Source: an uncultured Clostridia bacterium (GTDB taxonomy: Bacteria > Bacillota > Clostridia > Lachnospirales > Lachnospiraceae). From it: a stretch of 33,352 nucleotides of DNA. The stretch spans positions 64,001 to 97,352 of the forward strand of contig CANDMY010000006.1 of the NCBI GenBank assembly GCA_947385945.1. Reading direction: 5' to 3'. Under the pieces are notes generated by a model, which was given only the letters and a program-made list of their open reading frames with translations, was not told the DNA's origin and did no database searches. A program made the translations under genes and the position numbers. This document shows, piece after piece, positions 314-32,244 of this stretch; position 1 is the stretch's first letter; every line of letters begins with the position of its first letter.

Positions 314-479
314 TCCATTCCTCTCCTTATACAATACTCCCTTTTTTTGCAAGTCCAAATCTAAAAACTTTCATTTTCTTAAAAAACTTCTTTATATTCT
401 AGATGATTATGGAAGAATTGTCAAGATTAAACTGCAAACCATTCCGCAAATCCAACCTACCGACAGAAAAAAACAGCCG

Positions 480-718
480 GAGCGGGGGAGTGATTCCGTT
501 CTGCTGTGACTTCGGAGGAAAGTTAGAAGCCCTTAGACTTCTGTCGATCCACTAGGATTTTTTGCCATTCCCGAATGGCAAAAAAAGGGGTGTGTTTAGC
601 CCGCTGTACAGGCGAATTGCACCCCGATCCGTCCGGCTGGATACACCGAAATTCAGAAGTCTTAGAGCTTCTTACTTTCCAGAGAGCGGAACAGCAGAAT
701 GGAATCACTCCCCCACTC
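480..718 (+). repeat. Copy 1 of a ~235-nt long imperfect-palindrome element: ~185-nt conserved core (about 507-693) inside a private outer stem; candidate structured ncRNA or hairpin-resident non-autonomous mobile element
   Basis: 5' arm gagcgggggagtgattccgttctgctg pairs with 3' arm cagcagaatggaatcactcccccactc. The core is ~90% identical to 21590-21770 and, in inverted orientation, to 18650-18850. An internal hairpin gccattcccgaatggc lies at 564-579. Confidence 0.7.
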
Positions 719-751
719 CAGCGTCCCCTTCTATTTTTTACTCCAAGCAAA

Positions 752-10588: not shown

Positions 10589-11770
10589 TTAACAGTAATA
10601 GCCCTCCAATATTGCAGTATGAACATACTGAGGGCTTAACGAATATCCACATTGACAGAAACTTTTATTCGCTATGATGTCAACAGACTCTCTTAAACCA
10701 TTCACCATACAACCTTTTACTGAATAAATATAATCTACTGCTTTTTCATTTCGGATCTGATAAGCAAGCCACCACTGTTCCTCTGATACAATTGACTCCC
10801 AATTTCCTTTCACTAAGTTACACTGTTCTACCAAATTTCCTTCTTTGTCATAAACATCCTCCCTGATTGGTTTAATTTTGGTTGCAATCTTCTTTTTTGT
10901 CATGGTATCTTCTATTTTAAACTTTCCATATAACAGATACCCCATATATTTTTCATTTCTAAGAACTCGGTTTACCTTAGATGCACTCCAACCCAAATCT
11001 CCTTTTGCTGTCAGCATCTTATGTTCAATCAAATAATTTGCAATTTTTTGAGTTCCCATACGCTTTGTTAAATCAGGATCGGTATATAAATCAAAAATTG
11101 TCTTAACAGTCAATCCATCAACTGGATCAATCCGAAAAGTATTATTCTTCCTATCCACAGCTTTTACATAAATATAACCAAATAACCCTGATACCACTAA
11201 TTGCCCTTTCTTTCTATAAGAAAGAACACCATTATTAACCCTTTTCGCCGTCCTCATTGACTCGCTCTGAGCCAATCCTCCATCAACTGACAAACGAATA
11301 ATATCTGTTTCGTCCATATTAAATGTCCAATACTTTCCATCCAGTATTAAAACTCCAATATCATATTCTTTTAACTCTTCAATTGTATTTAATAATTCAC
11401 GTAAATTCCTAGCAAATCTGCAAATATCTTGAACAATAATTAAATCGAACTCCCTTCGTCTGGCTGCTTCCAACATAAGCTGAAATGCTGTTCGATCTTC
11501 TATACTTCTTCCTGAGATACCCCTTTCTGTATATCGATGCCTTTCTTCAATTGTAAAATAAATATGCTCTTTGATCAAAGAATCTAAACGTTCCGCTTGA
11601 TTATGTAACGCCTGCAACTGATCTGGATGATTTGTAGATTCTCCGGCATATCTGGCAACTCTTAAAAGCCTATTTGTATTCAAGATATCATCAAATCTAC
11701 ACTCAAAAAAGAACTTTCTCATACTTAAAGACTCTTGTCTTTCCTTTGTATTTCTACTAAATATACTCAT
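10589..11770 (-). CDS. Serine recombinase (resolvase/invertase catalytic domain plus recombinase domain), atypical and probably degenerate
   Basis: Resolvase-like blocks LLRVARYAGESTNHPDQLQAL, YTERGISGRSIEDRTAFQLML and DLIIVQDICRFARN. The active-site box reads YAGEST instead of YARVST, so the conserved Arg is replaced. The protein is 393 aa with only a single CxC at the C-terminus and no full zinc ribbon. The ATG overlaps the stop of the upstream small ORF (TAATG). Confidence 0.6.
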   Translation of the reverse strand: MSIFSRNTKERQESLSMRKFFFECRFDDILNTNRLLRVARYAGESTNHPDQLQALHNQAERLDSLIKEHIYFTIEERHRYTERGISGRSIEDRTAFQLMLEAARRREFDLIIVQDICRFARNLRELLNTIEELKEYDIGVLILDGKYWTFNMDETDIIRLSVDGGLAQSESMRTAKRVNNGVLSYRKKGQLVVSGLFGYIYVKAVDRKNNTFRIDPVDGLTVKTIFDLYTDPDLTKRMGTQKIANYLIEHKMLTAKGDLGWSASKVNRVLRNEKYMGYLLYGKFKIEDTMTKKKIATKIKPIREDVYDKEGNLVEQCNLVKGNWESIVSEEQWWLAYQIRNEKAVDYIYSVKGCMVNGLRESVDIIANKSFCQCGYSLSPQYVHTAILEGYYC

Positions 11771-16061: not shown

Positions 16062-16132
16062 TCTATCTGTCCTTTCCAAATAAAAAATTAGGTTGAGATT
16101 CGAAAACCTCAACCCATGTCCTCATTCATTAC

Positions 16133-16342
16133 TTAGTTATTGCTTGAAAAGCCATACTTTCTGTTGAACTTATCCACACGTCCACGAGCGATATTTGCCT
16201 TCTGCTGACCTGTATAGAAAGAATGACATTTGGAACAGATTTCTACATGAATATCCTTCTTAGTCGATCCTGTTACAAACTCATTACCACAGTTGCAAAC
16301 CACTTTTGCCTGATAATATGCTGGATGGATTCCTTCTCTCAT
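16133..16342 (-). CDS. rpmE: 50S ribosomal protein L31 (zinc-ribbon, C+ type)
   Basis: [48 protein letters not shown]...[11 protein letters not shown] is the canonical L31 sequence, with CxC...CxxC. Confidence 0.9.
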
Positions 16343-16417
16343 GTTTCTTCACCTCACAAAAATATTTTGCAGCTCTCACTGCATTTTAAATTGGTATCCC
16401 AATCTTTTTCTTCATAA

Positions 16418-16446
16418 ACAGCTTTTTTACTATACCATAAATATAC
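16418..16446 (-). promoter_or_regulatory. Putative sigma-A promoter for rpmE (-35 TTGCAT, 17-nt spacer, -10 TATAGT)
   Basis: Read on the minus strand: cTTGCATttttgtatatttatggTATAGTaaaa, ~75 nt upstream of the rpmE ATG. A small hairpin (tgcagtgagagctgca) sits in the leader. Confidence 0.45.
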
Positions 16447-16512
16447 AAAAAATGCAAGTACGAATTTTGCTTTTTTAAGGGTTTTCCTTAAAAAACAAAA
16501 AAATTGCAAGAG

Positions 16513-16629
16513 TCAAATCGGATATTTGCAATCCGCTTTGCTACTTGCTCATAACCTCATAGCTGCTATCGCAGCTTCACTTTCGCCTTGGCAGCTTAGA
16601 AGCGGGGGACTTCCTTGATGAGGTTAAAC
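16513..16629 (+). repeat. Copy C of the modular intergenic repeat (5' module + gctgctatcgcagc mini-hairpin + 3' module)
   Basis: tcaaatcggatatttgcaatccgctttgctacttgctcataacctcat agctgctatcgcagct ... cgccttggcagcttagaagcgggggacttccttgatgaggttaaac. Confidence 0.75.
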
Positions 16630-16833
16630 AAAAATAAAAGAAAAATTATAAAAAAGTATTTTCTATTTATAAAAAAGTACTTTCTATTTTTGAAAATATG
16701 TTGTATAATCAATTTTATTAGAGAAGCCAGATATTGACAATGATAATTCTAAATATATCTATCAATATAAAATATGAAGTCCAAATAATCCCGTTGTACA
16801 ATTTTATAATACATGACATGGAAAGGTGAGATT

Positions 16834-18597
16834 ATGAATTACGAAGAGATGTCTTTAGTTGAATTGAGAGCAGCAGCAAAAAAAATGGGGCTGAAAGGAA
16901 CAACTGCCATGAGAAAATCAGAACTGCTCGCATTACTAATACGTGAAAAAGAAAAAATACAAGAAGAAACTATCCTATCAGAACAAAAAGCAATTTCTAA
17001 ACCAACCATCGTACCAGAACAAAATAATTCAATAGAAAATAAAACAATAATGGAACAAAAACCTATAACCGAACAAACGATAGGAATCAAACAAAAAGAA
17101 ATTTCAGAAGAAAAATCCCCTATAAAAAAAGTTTTCGTTTTGCCTAGAGAAAATGAAGGACGTACTTATTCCAACAATTACAACAGAGAAAGCAACAATT
17201 ACAATAGAGAAAACAATAACTACAAGGAAAACAGCTACAATAAAGAAAATATCACAAACAGAGAAAACGGAAACCGAGAAATAAAAGAAAATCGAGAAAA
17301 CGGCGACAGACAGCCTCGGCAATTTCAAAACGGGAATACTCAGCGGAGGATGCAAGATACCAGTAAACGCCCGAATTTTTCAGTGGAAAATCGGGACGGA
17401 TTAGTAAATGCAGGAAGAACCGAAGACGGCACTGTTATCCAGGTAAAATCACAAGAAGAATTGGCACAGTTAGACAGCGGAATTGTAGCTAGCGGAGTTC
17501 TTGAAGTTATGACAGACGGATTTGGATTTATCCGCAGTAATAACTATATGCCAGGAGATAATGATGTCTATGTATCACCGGCACAAATTCGAAAATTAAA
17601 TTTAAAAACCGGAGATATTGTGGTAGGAAATCTTCGGGTAAGAAATCAAAATGAAAAATTCGCCGCACTGCTTTATGTAAAAAGCATCAACGGCATGAAT
17701 CCAGAAGATGCAACAAAAAGACCAAATTTTGAAGAATTAACCCCTATTTTCCCAGATGAGCGGCTGCATATGGCAACGGACACCAAAAATGTTTCTATGC
17801 GGATTGTAGATATGATGTCTCCGGTCGGAAAGGGACAGCGCGGAATGATTGTAGCTCCTCCAAAAGCAGGTAAAACTACTCTCTTAAAAGAAATTGCCAA
17901 ATCAATTACTAAAAATCATCGAGATGTCTATTTAATTATTCTCTTAATTGATGAACGTCCAGAAGAAGTAACCGATATTAAAGAATCTATTGAAGGTCCA
18001 AATGTTGAAGTCGTATATTCCACATTTGACGAACTGCCGGAACATCATAAACGAGTTTCAGAGATGGTTTTAGAACGGGCAAAGCGATTAGTGGAATATA
18101 AACAAGATGTTGTAATTTTATTAGACAGCATCACTCGTCTGGCAAGGGCTTATAATTTAGTTGTTCCGCCAAGCGGAAGAACTCTTTCCGGCGGTTTAGA
18201 TCCGGCAGCACTCCATATGCCAAAGCGGTTTTTCGGTGCAGCACGAAATATGAGAGAAGGCGGCAGTCTTACGGTGTTGGCTACGGCTTTGATCGAAACG
18301 GGAAGTAAAATGGATGATGTTATTTATGAAGAATTTAAAGGAACCGGAAATATGGAATTGACACTAAATCGAAAACTGCAAGAAAAGCGGATCTTTCCGG
18401 CTATTGATATTTTAAAGTCCAGTACTAGAAGAGATGATCTGTTATTAACAGCAAAGGAGCAGGAAGCAATGGAAGTGATTCGAAAAGCGACCAGCGGGAT
18501 GCGTGCAGATGAAGCGGTAGAACAGATTATTGATATGTTCGCTAGAACTAAGGACAATGTGGAGTTTGTACAGCAGGTAAAGCGGATGCGGCTGTAA
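16834..18597 (+). CDS. rho: Transcription termination factor Rho with a long N/Y/E-rich low-complexity (prion-like) N-terminal insertion
   Basis: N-terminal [35 protein letters not shown] (Rho N-terminal helix bundle). Walker [21 protein letters not shown] loops and the C-terminal RecA-like domain are present. The insertion at residues ~100-190 contains [26 protein letters not shown]. Start moved to the ATG with a GGAAAGGTGAG SD. Confidence 0.9.
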
Positions 18598-18620
18598 ATA
18601 CGGATTTGATGGGGGAGGAC

Positions 18621-18876
18621 GCCGGGGCGGGGAAGCCATCCCTTGCCGCTGTTCCGCTCTACGGAAAGTAAGAAAGTCTAATGCCTCTGAATTTCAGTTC
18701 ATCCAACCGGACGGACCGGCACGCAATTCGCCTCTGCAGGAGGCTAAACACGTGCCTTTTTTTGTCATCAGTGATGACAAAAAATCCTGGGGAATCGACA
18801 GAGGCATAAGACTTTCTAACTTCCCTCCGAAGTCACAGCGGCAAGGGATGGCTTCCCCGCCCTGGCTGTCTCATCC
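18621..18876 (-). repeat. Copy 3 (inverted orientation) of the long imperfect-palindrome element, in its own perfect outer stem ggggaagccatcccttgccgctgt / acagcggcaagggatggcttcccc
   Basis: The core aligns to the reverse complement of copies 1 and 2, with compensatory changes. gtcatcagtgatgac at 18764-18778 replaces gccattcccgaatggc. ggcacg...cgtgcc replaces ggggtg...cacccc. The conserved single-stranded blocks caattcgcc, gctaaacac, tgaatttc and ccggacgga are retained. Confidence 0.7.
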
Positions 18877-18949
18877 TGCCTGTAGATTTATTTATTTCCT
18901 ATTTTTTTATAAAATTCAATATAAATATTTTCTTAAAGAATATGTTCTA

Positions 18950-19110
18950 TTCATTTTCTTTCATTTATGTTATTTATTTCCTTTCATTTATGTTATTTAT
19001 TTTCTTTCATTTACGTTATTTATTTTCTTTTATTTATGTTATTTATTTTCTTTCATTCATATTATCTATTTCCTCTTATTTATGTTATCTATTCTCTTTT
19101 ATTTATTTCG
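18950..19110 (+). repeat. Tandem array of ~7 direct repeats of a 23-bp T-rich unit (tttcatttatgttatttattttc), each with an ~11.5-bp sub-period
   Basis: Units read directly: tttcatttatgttatttatttcc / tttcatttatgttatttattttc / tttcatttacgttatttattttc / ttttatttatgttatttattttc / tttcattcatattatctatttcc / tcttatttatgttatctattctc / ttttatttatttcg. There are no unique spacers, so this is not a CRISPR array. Confidence 0.8.
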
Positions 19111-19240
19111 TTTATTTTTTATAAGATTCAAAAAAATTTTTTTTAAAGTTTTTCTTATTTCTTATTATAGGGTTTCTTATTATAGGGGCAAAAATACCAG
19201 CATATTTATACAATCTTTGTATAAAATTCCCACCTTGACA

Positions 19241-19292
19241 ATTAGTACAGTTATGGACTATACGATAGATAGTACAGAACTGTACTAATATA
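19241..19292 (+). promoter_or_regulatory. Candidate MarR operator: palindrome AGTACAGaaCTGTACT plus a third AGTACAG half-site, overlapping a TTGACA -35-like hexamer just upstream of marR
   Basis: ttgacaattAGTACAGttatggactatacgatagatAGTACAGaaCTGTACTaat lies ~20-70 nt upstream of the marR ATG. MarR-family dimers bind such pseudo-palindromes and commonly autoregulate. Confidence 0.4.
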
Positions 19293-19308
19293 TTTAAAGA
19301 GGTAAATT

Positions 19309-19776
19309 ATGAGAAACAACACCATTTTTATGGAACAACTAAATAAATATTACGCTATATGGCAGGAGTATAACTATGTATATGAAGAATGGGCAAAAGC
19401 ACATGGACTGTCAGTCAACAGCCTTTTCGTACTGTGTGCCATTCACGATGGTGGAGATGATTGTACACAGAAAAAAATCAGTCAAAGATGGCTAATACCA
19501 AAGCAGACAATCAATATGGTTTTAAAAGATTTTGAACGCCGAGGATTTACAGAACTGTTTCCTATGCCGGAAGATAAAAGAAATAAAATAATACGATTTA
19601 CAAAAACAGGAAAAGAATATGCCGATACTATTATTTCCGAATTGCGAAAAGTAGAACTATTTGCAGTAGAGAAAATAGGCATAGAACGGATGCAGCAGTT
19701 AAACGAAAATATGGCTTTATTTGTAGACCTTTTCAGCAAAGCAGGAGGTAAAAAAGACCATGAAACAAACTTATGA
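19309..19776 (+). CDS. MarR-family winged-helix transcriptional regulator
   Basis: 155 aa. Central wHTH segment ...TQKKISQRWLIPKQTINMVLKDFERRGFTELFPMPEDKRNKIIRFTKTGKEYAD. AGAGGTAAATT SD. The 3' end overlaps the MATE gene start. Confidence 0.75.
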   Translation: MRNNTIFMEQLNKYYAIWQEYNYVYEEWAKAHGLSVNSLFVLCAIHDGGDDCTQKKISQRWLIPKQTINMVLKDFERRGFTELFPMPEDKRNKIIRFTKTGKEYADTIISELRKVELFAVEKIGIERMQQLNENMALFVDLFSKAGGKKDHETNL

Positions 19777-21099
19777 TATAAAAACTTTCCTTCAATTCGT
19801 TATCCCATCTGTGCTGTCTTTTGCTTTATCAGGGGTTTATACGATTGTAGACGGTTTTTTTATAGGAAACAGCATAGGCGATTTAGGACTCTCAGCCGTC
19901 AATATCGCTTATCCCATTGTAGCAGTAATTCAAGCACTTGGGACAGGAATCGGAATGGGTGGTGCAATTTATTATTCCATTTGCAAAGCCGAAAAAAAAG
20001 AGGAACAGGCAAGAGAATTTACAGCCGGTGCTTTATGGATACTGATTATTTCAAGCATCCTTTTAACCATTTCTGTTTTTCTTTTAAACAGCACTCTTTT
20101 AAAATTATTAGGGGCAAGCAGCGAACTGCTTTTATTGGGAGAAGAATATATTGCCGTTATCGCCTTAGGAGCTGCCCTGCAAGTAATTGGTACAGGATTC
20201 ATTCCTTTTATCCGTAATTATGGCGGTTCCTTTTCTGCAATGGTTTCTATGATTGCAGGTTTTGTTACCAATATCATTTTTGACTACCTATTTGTATGGA
20301 TATTAGGGCGAGGCGTTGCAGGTGCAGCATGGGCTACAGTAATCGGGCAAGGTATTACCCTGCTGACTGCACTTATCTATTTATTACACAAAAAACAACT
20401 TACATTAAACATTCCTCTTTCAAAGTTTGGAAAGGTATCTGCATCCATACTTAAAATCGGAATTGCTCCATTTGGACTTACCATGTCCCCTAATCTCTCT
20501 CTTATAATTATAAACCGTTTCTCCATGTCCTATGGAGGAGAATCGGCAATTGCTGTCTATGCTTGTATTTCCTATGTCATTTGCATTGTCTATTTAATAC
20601 TGCAGGGAGTAGGTGATGGAAGTCAACCGTTACTCAGTCAGCACTACGGTGAAAAAAATTTTGATAAACTAAAAAACACAAGAAATTTCGCTTATCGATT
20701 TGCCATGTTCCTCTCCTTTATTGGCTGCATCATTATGTATTTAACAAGAAAAGAGCTCGGCGTATTATTCGGAGCATCAAATGAAGTAAATAAAGAAATT
20801 GCAAAAATAATGCCCATCTTTTTGTTTTCCGTACCCTTTGTTGCAATTCTCCGTATCACAACAGCGAGTTTTTATGCCACAGAAAAAATACCTTTTCCTA
20901 TATTTTGACTTTTATTGAACCATTGCTTATGTTAATACTTATGCTTATACTACCGCCTCTATTTGGCGGGCAGATAATGATCTGGTGGAGTACCGTTTTA
21001 GCAAGGATTTTCTCGGCATTATTAGCTATTATCCTAAAAACCCATACAGACAAAAAGCCCTTATCAAATAATACAATATTAGAATACAAAAATGAATAA
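19760..21099 (+). pseudogene. MATE-family multidrug efflux transporter with an apparent frameshift near 20880-20910 (or an uncorrected sequencing error)
   Basis: The 382-aa ORF (19760-20908) has polytopic MATE-like helices but stops after ~10 TMs. A 64-aa ORF in another frame (20905-21099, MTFIEPLLMLILMLILPPLFGGQIMIWWSTVLARIF...) looks like the missing hydrophobic C-terminus. An A7 homopolymer sits at ~20882-20890, just before the frame change. Confidence 0.55.
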
Positions 21100-21107
21100 A
21101 AATATCA

Positions 21108-21425
21108 AAGAAAATTCGGCATCCGCTCCACTACTTCCTTATAATCCTATGCTGCTATCGCAACTTGTCAGATAGGGCTTGCACCCCACCTGACACAAGG
21201 AACTCCCCCAACCCACCACCTTCGCCTTCACGGCTTAGAAGCAGCAAACTTCCTTGATAGGGTCAAATCGGATATTCGCAATCCGCTTCGCTACTTGCTC
21301 ATAACCTCATAACTGCTATCGCAGCCTTTCAGTGGGAGTCTGCACTCCCACTGAAACAAGGAAGTCCCAGCCCGCCGCTTTCGCCTTGGCGGCTTAGAAG
21401 CGGGGACTTCCTTGATGAGGTTAAA
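21108..21425 (+). repeat. Copies D and E of the modular intergenic repeat, in tandem; D is a divergent variant, E is full-length with an extra inserted hairpin (cagtgggagtctgcactcccactg)
   Basis: D: ...atccgctccactacttccttataatcctatgctgctatcgcaac...cgccttcacggcttagaagcagcaaacttccttgatagggtc. E: tcaaatcggatattcgcaatccgcttcgctacttgctcataacctcataactgctatcgcagc...cgccttggcggcttagaagcggggacttccttgatgaggttaaaa. Confidence 0.75.
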
Positions 21426-21561
21426 AAACCAGTAAAAATTTCCACAAACCAAAAATAAATCAAAACCTAACAAAAACTCCAAAAACCTAAAGAAAAACAA
21501 AAAAACAACTCTCAAAATCCCAAAAGGAAAGCCATCATTAAGTAAATTAAGCGAAAAAGCA

Positions 21562-21795
21562 GCCAGAGTGCGGTATGGCGGCGATGTGACTTCGGAAGAA
21601 AGTTAGAAGCTCTTAAACTTCTGTCGATCCACTAGGATTTTTTGCCATTCTCGAATGGCAAAAAAAGGGGTGTGTTTAGCCCGCTGTACGGGCGAATTGC
21701 ACCCCGTTCCGTCCGGTTGGATGCATCTATATTCAGAAGTTTTAGAGCTTCTTACTTTCTGTAGAGCGGAACATCGCTGCCATACCACACTCTGG
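21562..21795 (+). repeat. Copy 2 of the long imperfect-palindrome element, with private outer stem gccagagtgcggtatggcggcgatg / catcgctgccataccacactctggc
   Basis: The core (about 21587-21770) is ~90% identical to copy 1. The outer 25-bp arms are unrelated in sequence to those of copies 1 and 3, yet mutually complementary (one mismatch, one G:U). Confidence 0.7.
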
Positions 21796-21852
21796 CGTCC
21801 TCCCCCAAAAATTATCTATCCCCCTTAAAATAAAGAATATTCGCAAAACCTA

Positions 21853-21882
21853 TTGATCTCCATTCTTCCTCTATGCTAAAAT
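21853..21882 (+). promoter_or_regulatory. Putative sigma-A promoter for the malic enzyme gene (-35 TTGATC, 18-nt spacer, -10 TAAAAT)
   Basis: tatTGATCtccattcttcctctatgcTAAAATaaaa, ~60 nt upstream of the ATG at 21940. Confidence 0.35.
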
Positions 21883-21939
21883 AAAAACCAATGCGATCAA
21901 CCCGCATCAATATTTTAGAACAAAGATAGGAGACATAGA

Positions 21940-23091
21940 ATGACAACAAGTGAAAAAGCTCTAACACTGCACAAAAAATGGAACGGCAAAATCGAAACCA
22001 TCTCGAAATGCCCTATCCAATCCAGAGAAGATCTCGCCCTGGCATACACTCCAGGCGTGGCAGAACCCTGCAAAGTAATAGCCAAAGACAAAAAAGCAGC
22101 CTATCAATACACCTTAAAAGCCAACACCGTAGCGGTTATTACAGACGGAAGTGCCGTCCTAGGTTTAGGAAATATCGGACCTTACGCCGCAATGCCGGTA
22201 ATGGAAGGAAAAGCCGCACTATTTAAAGAATTCGGCGGCATCAATGCCTTTCCAATCTGCTTAGACACCCAGGACACCGAAGAAATCATTAAAACCATTG
22301 TCCATATCGCCCCTGCATTTGGAGGCATTAACCTAGAAGATATTTCTGCCCCACGTTGCTTCGAAATCGAAGAACGTTTAAAATCCCTTCTAGATATCCC
22401 GGTCTTTCATGACGATCAGCACGGAACCGCTATTGTCGTCCTAGCTGGTATTATCAATGCACTAAAAGTAGTAAAAAAGCAAAAAGAAGACTGCAAAGTA
22501 GTTGTAAACGGTGCCGGCTCCGCAGGAATTGCTATTACCAAACTCCTGCTGACCTATGGTTTTCTATCCGTTACTCTATGTGACAAATCTGGTATCCTTT
22601 CTAAAACCACCAAAGATCTCAACTGGATGCAGAAGCAAATGGTTGACCGCACTAACTTAGAAGGAAAAACAGGGTCTCTATCGGATGCCCTAAAAGGTGC
22701 CGATATTTTTATTGGCGTATCCGCACCGAATATTGTAACACCGGAAATGGTAGCATCTATGAACTCAGATGCCATCTTATTTGCTATGGCAAATCCTGTA
22801 CCTGAAATTATGCCGGATTTAGCAAAGGCAGCCGGTGCAAGAGTGATTGGTACCGGGCGATCTGACTTTCCTAATCAAGTCAACAATGTAGTAGCATTTC
22901 CGGGTATTTTTAAAGGTGCATTGGAAGGACACGCCACACAGATTACAGAGGAAATGAAATTGGCTGCTGCAAAAGCCATCGCCAGTTTAGTACCAGATTC
23001 GGAATTAAGCGATAACAATATTATGCCGCAGGCTTTTGATCCTCGTGTTGCAGAAATTGTAAGCAATGCAGTAAAAAGCCATATCCATTAA
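21940..23091 (+). CDS. NAD(P)-dependent malic enzyme (malate dehydrogenase, oxaloacetate-decarboxylating), short ~380-aa form
   Basis: MTTSEKALTLHKKWNGKIETISKCPIQSREDLALAYTPGVAEPC... is the typical bacterial malic-enzyme N-terminus. Rossmann GAGSAGIAI. GGAGAC SD. Confidence 0.85.
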   Translation: MTTSEKALTLHKKWNGKIETISKCPIQSREDLALAYTPGVAEPCKVIAKDKKAAYQYTLKANTVAVITDGSAVLGLGNIGPYAAMPVMEGKAALFKEFGGINAFPICLDTQDTEEIIKTIVHIAPAFGGINLEDISAPRCFEIEERLKSLLDIPVFHDDQHGTAIVVLAGIINALKVVKKQKEDCKVVVNGAGSAGIAITKLLLTYGFLSVTLCDKSGILSKTTKDLNWMQKQMVDRTNLEGKTGSLSDALKGADIFIGVSAPNIVTPEMVASMNSDAILFAMANPVPEIMPDLAKAAGARVIGTGRSDFPNQVNNVVAFPGIFKGALEGHATQITEEMKLAAAKAIASLVPDSELSDNNIMPQAFDPRVAEIVSNAVKSHIH

Positions 23092-27570: not shown

Positions 27571-28347
27571 TTACAAGAGCTGTACCGTCTTTTCGAGTTC
27601 CTCTGCACCCTGTCGCTTCGGTTGACTGGCAGAAAGGAAATTGATTTCACCTACAAAGTTGAAAACAATATCTACTTTCTGTACCCGTTTCCCGTCCACC
27701 TTTTCCGGCGCATGGACTATGATTTTCTTGATAAATTCATTGACGATTGCGGGGGTGAGTTCCTTTATCCCCACATACTTGCGGATAATCGCGGCGAAGC
27801 TGTCAAAATCGCTCTTATTCTGTTCGTAGGTATCGACTTCCTGCTGGTCTGCCTTGACCTTTTCTTCCAGTTCCCGCTGTTCCGCTTCATACTCTGCGGA
27901 CAGCTTCAAAAACCTGTCGTGACTGATTGCCCCGCTTATGTCGTCCTCATAAATCCGCTTGAAGATACGGTCAAGTTCCGCTATCCGCTTCCTCGCCTGT
28001 CCGACCTCACGCTTCCTGCGTTTCATTTCCTTTTCCGTTTCAGCGGAGCGTTGCTGATACATCATTTCATGGAAAGCCATGATGTCATCAAAGAAAAGGG
28101 CGGTCACATCAAATATCCTGCTCCATACGATTTGCTTCAACACTTCTTCGCGGATAAAGTGAGCCGTACAGCTTCCTGTATTGCTCTTGTACTTTGCACA
28201 GCGGTAATGGTCTTGTGAGCCGTTAAAACTTTTACAGGTAACAAAGTGTAATTTACTCCCACAGTCTGCACAGTATACCAAGCCGGAGAACAGGGCTTGC
28301 CGTTCTGCTTTTGTGGGGCGGCGTTTGTTCGCCCTAAGTTCCTGCAC
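27571..28347 (-). pseudogene. 3' fragment of a large serine recombinase gene (zinc-ribbon/coiled-coil/C-terminal DUF4368-like region only; catalytic N-terminus missing)
   Basis: ...LFSGLVYCADCGSKLHFVTCKSFNGSQDHYRCAKYKSNTGSCTAHFIREEVL... (CxxC ... C...C zinc ribbon), then a coiled coil and the ...IVHAPEKVDGKRVQKVDIVFNFVG tail typical of Tn-borne large serine recombinases (TndX/TnpX-like). No resolvase domain lies upstream; that space holds an unrelated gene fragment in another frame. Confidence 0.6.
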
Positions 28348-30310: not shown

Positions 30311-30368
30311 CTCCCCGAGTAGGGCTCGAACCTACAACCCCACGGTTAACAGCCGTGTGCTCTACCAT
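30311..30368 (-). tRNA. 3' portion (~58 nt: D-loop remnant, anticodon arm with GTT, variable loop, T-arm, 3' acceptor strand) of a tRNA-Asn(GTT) gene; no 5' acceptor or D stem, so not a functional tRNA
   Basis: Minus strand reads ...tcaatggtagagcaCACGGCTGTTAACCGTGgggttGTAGGTTCGAGCCCTACTCGGGGAg. It has an anticodon stem CACGG/CCGTG with loop CTGTTAA, a T-arm GTAGG-TTCGAGC-CCTAC and a 3' acceptor strand. The expected 5' partner TCCCCGAGT...GCTC is absent; an unrelated hairpin (tacggtatgtaaccgta) lies there instead. Confidence 0.7.
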
Positions 30369-30629
30369 TGATACGGTTACATACCGTAAATCTCTTTGAT
30401 AGAGTGTCATGCTCCAAATTACAATCGAGGGTATCTTATCATTTCTCGTGGCTACTAGCGAACTGATAACCTAACGAAGATTATGTTATCATATCTTTTT
30501 TCATTTGGCAAGAGGTAAATTATCGTTTTTTAAACTTTTTTTATATCATTTCCTCTTATACGACTATACGTATAAGTTAAATACCGGCTTATGTCTTAAT
30601 TGGTAAAGCCCTCGGTCAGCCACCCTTTA

Positions 30630-32244
30630 TCAGATGGCCTCCGTGACCAAAACGCTGCCGTCGCCCCATTCGGAGCAGAACTGCTGGTATGACATGTTGA
30701 GCTCAACAGAGATTTTGTAATCCCTCCCAATCTCGATACGCTTGAACAAGTGGCAGGCGATCATTTTCTTCTGCTCCAGGGTGGTCGTGTCGAATTCCTC
30801 CGCCCAGGACTTGAACTGGTTGTAGGTCGGGGTGATCAAATCAATCCCCTGTTTCTTCCTGGCTTCTTCCTCCCGGAGCTCCGTGAGCTTTGTCTCCGCC
30901 TCGGTGATCCGTGACTTGATGGTCTGGATTGCCTGGGACAGATCCTCCGGGGAATAAATGCTGTCGCCTGTCAGCGTCTTTGCGATTTCAAGCTGCAGCT
31001 TCGTGAGCTGTTCCTTATTCTTGGTGAGCTCCAAGTCCAGCTTCTTCTGCGTGACCCTGTTCCCGGCCATCTGCCGCTTGAACATTGCCTGCAGCTTTTC
31101 TTCCTCCGGCACCCCGTCCATGCAGCTAAATATCTTTCGGATAATCTGCCGGATGGTCTCGTCCATTCTGTCCGCCTGATAGGTTGTCTGCCCGTCACAC
31201 TTGCAGAGCTTGCGGCTCTTGTGATAACAGGAATACTTAATCTGATCCACGGAATACTCCGTGCCGTCAGCCCTTGTATAGCTGTCACGGTACCGGATGG
31301 TCGTCAGCCTCCCGCCACAGTGGGCACAGAACACATTCCCGGAAAGCATCGCCTGCCCTTTGGTCTGCAAAGCGATATGGCGCTTTTCCTCATTTTTATT
31401 CTGCCTCTGCTCCAGGATGTAAAGAATCTGGTCGTATGTATCATCACTGCGAAGCCGCAGCACCTCCAACTGGGGAGAAGTCGAACCGTCCTCCAGCCTC
31501 CCGCAATAGAAGGAATCCCGAAGGATACGGATCACTTTAATTCTTGTGAACTTTCCCCCGCCGCTGGGCTTATATCCCTTTTTATTAAGGAAGTCCGCCA
31601 TCCTGTAAGAGCCGTACCCCTTATGGATCGTCATATCGTCGATCATGTGGAGCACTTCGCTGTCCGCCGGGTCGATCTCATACTTCTTAATCTTTGCACC
31701 TTTCCGGTTCACAAGGTCGCTGTCCACCAGACGGTACCCGAACTTGACCGGGTCGCCGGTATATAACCCGTCAAGGGTCATCTGCTGCATCTTGCTCTTG
31801 ATCCGGATGGAGGTCTTTTCACTCTCGCCGGATGCCTGCCAGAACCGGAGATAATTCATCAGCTTGTCCACATGGTTGTTGAAGCACTGCTGCCCCCTCC
31901 TGGGTGCTCCATACCTCAACGCCGTGCTTGGCGAACCACTCCACCACAAAAGGCGTCTCGTCGTCAATCCTCTCGATCCTGTCGAACATGAATACCAGGA
32001 GGATGTCAAACTCGTCGTTCAGGGCAGCTTCTTTCAGTTCCTGGATGGCGTCCCTGTCATCCGCCGATACCTTATAGCCGGAAATCCCTTTTTCGGAAAA
32101 CTCCTTCAGGATCGTCCAGTCCTGTTGGCTGCTGGCAAAATCCCGGCACGCTGTTTTCTGCATAGGGATGTCATTTTCATTCTTATCGTTCTTGTCTACC
32201 TGCTTTTTGGTGGATACTCTATAAAGACAATAAACCCGTTTCAT
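30630..32244 (-). pseudogene. Large serine recombinase (integrase/transposase type), disrupted by a frameshift near 31880-31930
   Basis: The N-terminal resolvase domain ORF (MKRVYCLYRVSTKKQ...GISGYKVSADDRDAIQEL...FDILLVFMFDRIERI...; strong GGAGGT SD; ends 31819) overlaps a second-frame ORF carrying the rest (...FNNHVDKLMNYLRFWQASGESEKTSIRIKSKMQQMTLDGLYTGDPVKFGYRLV..., a CxxC...C...C zinc ribbon at CAHCGGRL...CYHKSRKLCKC, and a coiled coil). A G5/C5 run sits at ~31889-31896 in the overlap. Confidence 0.7.

Follow-up and report, generated by a model that had tools for sequence, protein, structure and literature searches.

The window analysed here, a stretch of 33,352 nucleotides (nt) from contig CANDMY010000006.1 (positions 64,001 to 97,352), belongs to the chromosome of a Lachnospiraceae bacterium and has housekeeping genes, including those for topoisomerase subunits, RF1, PrmC, Rho, MarR, MatE, malic enzyme and a dipicolinate synthase-like protein. 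It contains three loci, copy A (476-722, + strand), copy B (18621-18866, - strand) and copy C (21562-21796, + strand), which are probably copies of a dispersed, non-coding and self-folding Lachnospiraceae element, a variant of the Rfam family TwoAYGGAY (RF01731). An earlier note on this DNA, made from the sequence letters alone, had placed three loci essentially at these positions, and they are real: a 26-position core pattern yields three matches in the window, with 0.00 being expected from shuffles. If the assignment is right, TwoAYGGAY, an orphan since 2010, would act in this lineage as a massively amplified intergenic repeat of abundant gut Firmicutes, with about a hundred copies, or more, in a single genome, which is enough to break metagenome assemblies.

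Relation to the TwoAYGGAY family

With the gathering cut-off of RF01731 being 43 bits, matching with permissive filters gave 71.6 bits for copy B (E = 2.6e-12), 69.6 bits for copy C (E = 6.7e-11) and 61.4 bits for copy A (E = 5.9e-10). Once their regions are searched in this laxer way, the three copies thus lie 18-29 bits over the cut-off, and each match covers the full model (1-168) on one strand (+ for A and C, - for B). The comparison with Rfam had been proposed in the earlier note, which did not recognise the family itself. A gathering-mode Rfam scan of the whole 33-kb window returned a weak transfer RNA (tRNA)-like match only and missed A, B and C because of its speed filters. For annotation this means that a standard Rfam run overlooks all three copies, and that gene callers put spurious open reading frames (ORFs) over copies.

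TwoAYGGAY was first described by Weinberg et al. (2010; PMC2864571) from Clostridia and gut bacteria. Its name refers to two terminal hairpin loops with AYGGAY, its closing stem P1 is often very large, and the motif was not flagged as repetitive in that description (PMC2864571). In the literature of 2025 it is still a "relatively unexplored motif" of unknown function.

Like the family, the copies combine a P1 of great length and near-perfect pairing with internal loops and a pair of adjacent hairpins. Where the family has a P1 of about 24 base pairs (bp) with few mismatches around two hairpins, P1 was found here to span 25 or 31 bp. The host range is alike too, as the metagenome-assembled genomes (MAGs) carrying copies and the closest Rho homologues are labelled Lachnospiraceae. 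The seed genome Psychromonas ingrahamii likewise has several copies. However, AYGGAY was found in neither terminal hairpin loop of A, B and C. Where the RF01731 model has a C-AYGGAY-G loop, hairpin 1 of the copies reads CCAUU-CYCG-AAUGG, with a longer stem and a YCYCGA-type loop, and at the second such place hairpin 2 reads GCCCG-CUGUA-CGGGC or GCCUC-CUGCA-GAGGC, with a CUGYA-type loop. GGAU-containing blocks (CUAGGAU, YUGGAU) are located in the junction strands instead. As both eponymous loops are missing, the copies are better regarded as a variant of the family than as typical members. Another difference is the copy number per genome, which is far above anything noted in 2010. While the family and its large P1 were already known, the variant lacking the AYGGAY loops, its extreme amplification, the two oriented P1 classes and the head-to-head doublets appear to be new.

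Anatomy of the three copies

A three-way alignment of A, B and C delimits a core of 184-185 nt, from TGACTTCGGA through GAGCGGAA, which agrees with the length of ~185 nt given in the earlier note. The near-perfect inverted repeat that had been said to close each copy was found as well, and copy A together with its arms folds into a single long hairpin of -137 kcal/mol (z = -12 against shuffles). The parts of the copies are listed below, with P1 being assigned to a long or a short class according to its length.

461..475, + strand: leader of copy A, A-rich and conserved, cgacagaaaaaaaca (long-class upstream consensus)
476..506, + strand: 5' arm of P1 of copy A, 31 nt, long class (gapless pairing with 692-722)
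507..691, + strand: core of copy A with GA-rich internal loops, P2, junction and two hairpins (RF01731 match 510-687)
692..722, + strand: 3' arm of P1 of copy A (28 Watson-Crick pairs, 1 G-U and 2 A-C over 31 positions)
723..735, + strand: 3' tail of copy A, GUCC plus a C/U-rich stretch, conserved (downstream consensus GGCGTCCcCccc)
18621..18651, - strand: 3' arm of P1 of copy B, 31 nt, long class (pairing and length class)
18652..18835, - strand: core of copy B (RF01731 match 18656-18831, - strand only)
18836..18866, - strand: 5' arm of P1 of copy B (30 of 31 positions Watson-Crick paired with 18651-18621)
21562..21586, + strand: 5' arm of P1 of copy C, 25 nt, short class (pairing and length class)
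21587..21771, + strand: core of copy C (RF01731 match 21591-21766)
21772..21796, + strand: 3' arm of P1 of copy C (pairing)

Read on the opposite strand, the leader of copy A (461-475) is a T-run immediately past the hairpin, and at the other side ~17 nt separate the end of the tail from the stop codon of gene 752-1684, which is convergent. In copy B, ~20 nt lie between the GUCC tail (18617-18620) and the stop codon of rho at 18597. Copy C is followed by the tail GUCCUCCCCC at 21797-21806, and the promoter-like site (21853-21882) of the malic-enzyme gene (21940-23091) follows 55 nt further on. As delimited by alignment, the unit is a short conserved leader, P1, the core of ~185 nt and a tail of GUCC plus pyrimidines.

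Upstream of copy B, positions 18948-19118 are occupied by a 23-nt tandem repeat (7.4 copies). Together with copy B it creates a low-complexity ORF of 178 amino acids (18752-19288), which is called as a gene in public assemblies, has no Pfam match and is most likely spurious.

Fold, covariation and strand

The fold was examined with RNAalifold on an alignment of 51 complete copies, which all stem from closely related genomes, and the counts obtained from it are not independent events. The consensus comprises 72 pairs. Changes on both sides that compensate for each other were seen in 40 of them, and every helix includes such changes. Among the cells of the consensus structure 98.5% are paired and 465 are changed on both sides, whereas slid partners reach only 39-46% pairing and none of 500 shuffles attains the observed values. 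The first of two models offered in the earlier note, that of a structured RNA family with a covarying closing helix, is supported by these numbers.

On the strand matched by Rfam, 225 G-U cells stand against 33 A-C cells, a bias which is present in both P1 classes. Three G-U pairs are invariant, and the pairs 75:238 and 76:237 exhibit 21 G-U and not a single A-C. Because of this excess of G-U over A-C, it is the Rfam-matched strand which folds as a single strand. The fold is, as these substitution patterns indicate, under selection on that strand, i.e., on the + strand for A and C and on the - strand for B.

P1 and the empty site

P1 was measured in 49 copies with its arms anchored at the core. 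In 43 of them it is an ungapped helix, which has 31 bp in 27 copies and 25 bp in 16. The P1 cells comprise 1352 Watson-Crick, 39 G-U, 18 A-C and 6 other combinations, so that 1391 of 1415 (98.3%) are paired. In the same 49 copies, the identity between copies amounts to 0.65-0.68 for the arms and to 0.47-0.56 for their inner variable segment, compared with 0.84-0.85 for the core. By these comparisons, P1 is constrained in its pairing only and not in its sequence, and it drifts two to three times faster than the core. As this fast drift proceeds through compensatory changes, the stems look private to their loci at first sight, and the earlier note had indeed denied them any sequence similarity between loci. 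This has to be corrected: apart from the arm identity of 65-68%, the 27-nt arms are identical at 19 of 27 positions between A and B, and A, B and C have common termini, starting with CAGCCRGRG and ending with CYCYGGCGTCC. In RNA letters, the termini common to the copies read ACAGCCRGRG...CYCYGGCGUCC. Conservation continues beyond the stem, with a leader that is conserved over ~55 nt upstream in the long class (consensus ...TaccggcaGgAAaAaACAGCC) and over ~25 nt in the short class, and with a GUCCYC tail directly past P1 in both classes. As these class-specific leaders and tails are conserved, the unit extends beyond P1, and P1 is, going by the alignments, an intrinsic homologous part of the element. 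No guide-like role of the variable P1 segment emerged within the window, where no arm match of at least 11 nt was found elsewhere except for one 11-mer at chance level.

A copy in locus L116 (1109-1386) combines the 5' arm of the GCATTAGGGG subfamily with the 3' arm of another one, and its P1 is unpaired. It is probably a recombinant between two copies, and as its arms come from two subfamilies, arms would travel with the element.

Related genomes were reached via homologues of the adjacent Rho. The spacer between rho and the L31 gene has 144 nt in locus L133 and includes neither a copy nor a hairpin, whereas in locus L131 a head-to-head pair of copies separates the stop codon of rho from the conserved promoter of L31. 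This is the one comparison of a filled with an empty site, and it is a comparison between species. It also revealed a 10-nt direct repeat, AGAAAACGAA, in L131, which lies 22-27 nt outside the ends of the inserted pair and not at them. Contigs with an identical Rho protein belong to the same strain and did not provide any empty site.

These findings bear on the second model of the earlier note, in which the 185-nt core would insert, like IS200/IS605 elements or class C group II introns, into perfect hairpins that were already present and specific to each locus, for instance terminators or REP-like palindromes. Such insertion would agree with stems that differ strongly among copies around a conserved core and with copies lying at places where terminators are expected. 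However, the stems are homologous, come in two fixed lengths (25 and 31 bp), and have conserved termini and class-specific leaders and tails. The chimeric copy in L116 shows in addition that the arms move with the element. As the empty spacer of L133 has no hairpin, insertion into a pre-existing one is contradicted there, and the model retains hardly any probability.

All three copies in L131 (4330-4680, 6941-7275 and 7340-7670) have an insertion of ~70 nt in hairpin 2 and a longer hairpin 1, features which are missing from the copies of the window. That copies are closer to the family of their own genome than to the copy at the same locus elsewhere is, in these alignments, the signature of a within-genome turnover or homogenisation.

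The first copy in L131 is adjoined by a solo 3'-end remnant of a lost partner, CCGCCTCTGGTGTCCGG. When positions 16100-21940 of the window are compared with L131, L132 and L133, rho is inverted relative to L31-DUF1385-PrmC-RF1, and in the window MarR-MatE is located between copy B (-) and copy C (+). Gene order is broken at the places where copies lie, suggesting that inverted copies have recombined with each other.

Copy number and distribution

Species-representative genomes were scanned with the core pattern; the figures refer to the matches listed and are lower bounds. Beyond the window, at least 97 copies were found in loci from other assemblies, nearly all of them from one Lachnospiraceae MAG (MGBC128194). 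The matches listed include dozens of contigs of this MAG and several of a second Lachnospiraceae MAG. The count of three copies in the earlier note therefore holds within the window but not beyond it. Its argument that a multi-copy RNA is unlikely to have a housekeeping role was reasonable, since the element behaves as a dispersed repeat. Among the 97 listed copies, 35 lie at most 300 nt from the end of a locus, and in public assemblies of the strain to which the window belongs, contigs tend to end directly past rho, at copy B. A metagenome scan yielded mostly chance matches from soil, along with seven true copies from human-gut and other ENA contigs. In collections of phage, plasmid and viral contigs no copy was matched. 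Adjacent pairs, i.e., copies less than 1 kb apart, are head-to-head in 13 of 13 cases, for which random orientation gives a chance of ~0.25^13, and they usually consist of one long-class and one short-class copy.

Several copies deviate from the complete unit. In L080 (1920-2090, - strand), the 3' arm and the tail are repeated in tandem downstream of a complete copy, in three units with a period of 67 nt. The 3' end is likewise tandemly repeated in L115, and shorter iterations of the CTNGCGTCCCC terminus exist at other loci (L005, L064, L078). In L167 (1340-1630) the palindrome runs past P1 into the leader, with the 3' flank being the reverse complement of the leader and not GGCGTCC. The copy in L164 is 5'-truncated and starts in hairpin 2.

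The high copy number, the assemblies broken at copies and the conserved termini would also be accounted for by a miniature inverted-repeat transposable element (MITE) or foldback element acting at the DNA level. The P1 arms would then be the terminal inverted repeats for a transposase encoded elsewhere, the head-to-head pair would be the mobile unit, the RNA fold would be incidental, and the symmetry of the arms would be kept by arm-to-arm template switching in the palindrome. A unit of ~250 nt with inverted-repeat arms and at least 97 dispersed copies has the small size, terminal repeats and copy number of such elements. The pair in L131, which sits as a block insertion at a site that is empty in L133, and the uniform head-to-head orientation of the 13 adjacent pairs point in the same direction, as do the chimeric copy in L116 and the palindrome in L167, whose extension into the leader is what arm-to-arm copying predicts. 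Against this explanation stands the asymmetry between the strands, i.e., the G-U excess, the three invariant G-U pairs and the 21 G-U versus no A-C at 75:238 and 76:237. Compensatory changes also occur in internal helices outside the terminal repeats, neither a convincing target-site duplication nor a transposase was found near the copies, and the fold is common to an RNA family of other phyla. We consider a DNA-level transposable element unlikely and favour the element selected for its single-stranded fold.

Placement and neighbours

The two P1 classes differ in their placement. In 23 of 33 cases, a long-class copy (the class of A and B) has its 3' end turned towards the stop codon of a convergent gene (median distance 56 nt). 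A short-class copy, such as C, precedes a co-directional gene in 12 of 14 cases (median distance 254 nt). To our knowledge, two P1 length classes with a distinct genomic placement and head-to-head pairing have not been described before.

With long-class copies lying a median of 56 nt past the convergent stop codon, it appears conceivable that the host uses them in cis. The hairpin would then act in the messenger RNA (mRNA) of the upstream gene, for the long class on the opposite strand, as a terminator or 3' stabiliser like REP, BOX, ERIC and Correia elements, with the spread being secondary. A T-rich tract follows most of the long-class hairpins on the strand of the upstream gene (mean 7.2 T in 12 nt, median run 4), and copy A, with a run of T7, is placed exactly between the end of one gene and a promoter-like site (424-396) that belongs to the next. 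However, copy B has no T-run past its hairpin, the stem is about ten times as long as that of a usual terminator, and a conserved core of 250 nt is far beyond the needs of a terminator. The three invariant G-U pairs turn into A-C mismatches on the strand in question, and even the fast-evolving P1 of the long class has 28 G-U versus 15 A-C on the Rfam strand. A primary role as a host cis-element thus seems quite unlikely to us.

The sequence past P1 would also fit a family of trans-acting small RNAs (sRNAs), whose C/U-rich, single-stranded and anti-Shine-Dalgarno-like 3' tail (GUCCUCCCCC) pairs with ribosome-binding sites, as in the C-rich sRNAs of Firmicutes. The GUCCYC tail is kept in both classes, and among the 12 nt following P1 in the long class there are on average 6.8 C. 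Yet the tail is not alike in the two classes, no promoter or terminator was found that would define such a transcript, and about a hundred near-identical sRNA genes would be unprecedented. This possibility is therefore very improbable. An extended -10-like TGnGACAAT is located just before P1 in 8 of 21 short-class copies and in none of the long class.

The neighbours of the copies do not include any enriched family, with 84 ORFs beside copies matching 122 Pfam families, each of which occurs in at most three ORFs. In the same Pfam scan of 84 ORFs, no TnpA, TnpB, IscB, RAYT or Y1 transposase was found, and the lead towards IscB or TnpB given in the earlier note led nowhere among these neighbours. 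No reverse transcriptase was found in the window, and a motif search of the ORFs in 540 kb around the copies gave unrelated enzymes only. As an autonomous version with cargo, widely spaced copy pairs were considered and rejected: they enclose ordinary genes, namely a hydrolase gene in L043 and MarR-MatE in the window.

Proposed mode of action

Fold, membership of P1, placement and presence or absence of copies can be read from the sequences, unlike function and spread of the element, which we infer. The element would be non-autonomous and would spread or turn over via a trans-acting factor. This factor would recognise conserved unpaired blocks of the core on the folded single strand, which is most likely RNA. 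P1, as a perfect duplex of 25-31 bp, would serve as a clamp and probably also as a processing site of an RNase III-type, double-strand-specific enzyme. On landing, the element would separate transcription units by a hairpin of very high stability that is flanked by a T/U-rich stretch, and there it may be tolerated or even be useful as a putative terminator or insulator.

Several observations, besides the missing AYGGAY loops, weigh against the assignment of the copies to a self-folding RNA element that spreads. The G-U bias fits RNA but fits folding of single-stranded DNA of the same strand equally well, so far as such a bias can tell. The long-class copies run antisense to the gene on either side, and a consistent sigma-70-type promoter was found neither upstream of the copies nor in the spacers that separate paired copies. 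No mobilising enzyme and no autonomous relative with the same ends was detected in 540 kb around the copies, and the single between-species comparison gave no convincing target-site duplication. Mobility would follow from the copy number, from this one comparison of an empty with a filled site and from the homogeneity within genomes.

That selection acts on the RNA fold of a high-copy element fits a recognition at the RNA level, and one copy (L164) is 5'-truncated. A reverse transcriptase encoded elsewhere might accordingly use the element as its template or substrate RNA, either as a retron-like source of complementary DNA (cDNA) or as an element like the short interspersed nuclear elements (SINEs). 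No ORF for such an enzyme was found in the window or in the 540 kb around the 97 copies, and the copies have no A-rich 3' tail, which makes this reading distinctly improbable. A bacterial counterpart of SINEs, in which a folded single-stranded RNA or cDNA unit is copied to gene boundaries by an enzyme encoded elsewhere, possibly a reverse transcriptase, is a speculation to which we attach a rather small probability. If it were true, P1 would be regenerated in each round by copying one arm from the other, and the head-to-head doublets, the tandem 3' ends in L080 and L115 and the over-extended palindrome in L167 would be by-products. For the self-folding TwoAYGGAY variant as we favour it, the expressed strand, the binder of the core, the spread and the insulation all become testable in culturable Lachnospiraceae.

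Comparison with other known systems

The Correia elements of Neisseria as well as ERIC, BOX and RUP have 100-300 nt and inverted-repeat ends, and they lie in intergenic DNA at gene boundaries, in about a hundred copies or more. Their transcripts form long hairpins, which can be cut by RNase III and which alter terminators, promoters and mRNA stability. The element described here resembles them in its size, its inverted-repeat ends and its dispersed copies at gene boundaries. However, these elements have target-site duplications or a link to a transposase and decay after insertion, whereas no duplication was found here, the internal helices covary and G-U pairs are conserved. As the internal helices covary and the G-U pairs are conserved, selection would act on the single-stranded fold.

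REP and REPIN sequences occur as hundreds of palindromic units at gene ends, with inverted doublets replicating and being mobilised in trans by a single-copy RAYT. Palindromic units at gene ends, often as inverted doublets, are also seen here. Yet REP units have only 20-40 nt, compared with ~250 nt and a complex core in the present case, and no RAYT or Y1 transposase was found among the neighbours of copies, which is where the search was made, as opposed to whole genomes.

The processing stalk of ribosomal RNA (rRNA) precursors, an RNase III substrate, is similar in that a long duplex flanks a conserved RNA, with the pairing being kept while the sequence drifts faster. Unlike the present element, rRNA operons do not occur as about a hundred dispersed copies, and processing is only putative here. 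With IS200/IS605 elements and their palindrome-associated miniature derivatives, the present element shares a dependence on a folded single strand without the features of classical transposons. IS200/IS605 elements, however, have separate small subterminal hairpins and non-complementary termini, and their insertion takes place 3' of a fixed target of four or five nucleotides, whereas here one hairpin spans the whole element and the conserved termini are complementary. Retron non-coding RNAs differ in that they adjoin their reverse transcriptase, and none was found in the window or near the 97 copies.

Other features of the window

A second, unrelated family of intergenic repeats (~125-160 nt) with internal hairpins (...AATCGGATATTCGCAATCCGCT...GGCTTAGAAGCGGGGACTTCCTTGATGAGGTTAAA) and no Rfam match is also present in the window. 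It occurs at ~16505-16630, between L31 and rho, and in tandem at ~21100-21250 and ~21250-21425, just upstream of copy C. Members of this family were also seen in L005 and L092, beside copies of the TwoAYGGAY type.

Three serine-recombinase genes or fragments are located at 10589-11770, 27571-28347 and 30630-32009, with resolvase, recombinase, zinc-ribbon and DUF4368 domains. A partial tRNA-like Rfam match at 30319-30373 (29.7 bits) was not called by ARAGORN. Together, the serine-recombinase sequences and the tRNA-like match may be remnants of integrated elements.

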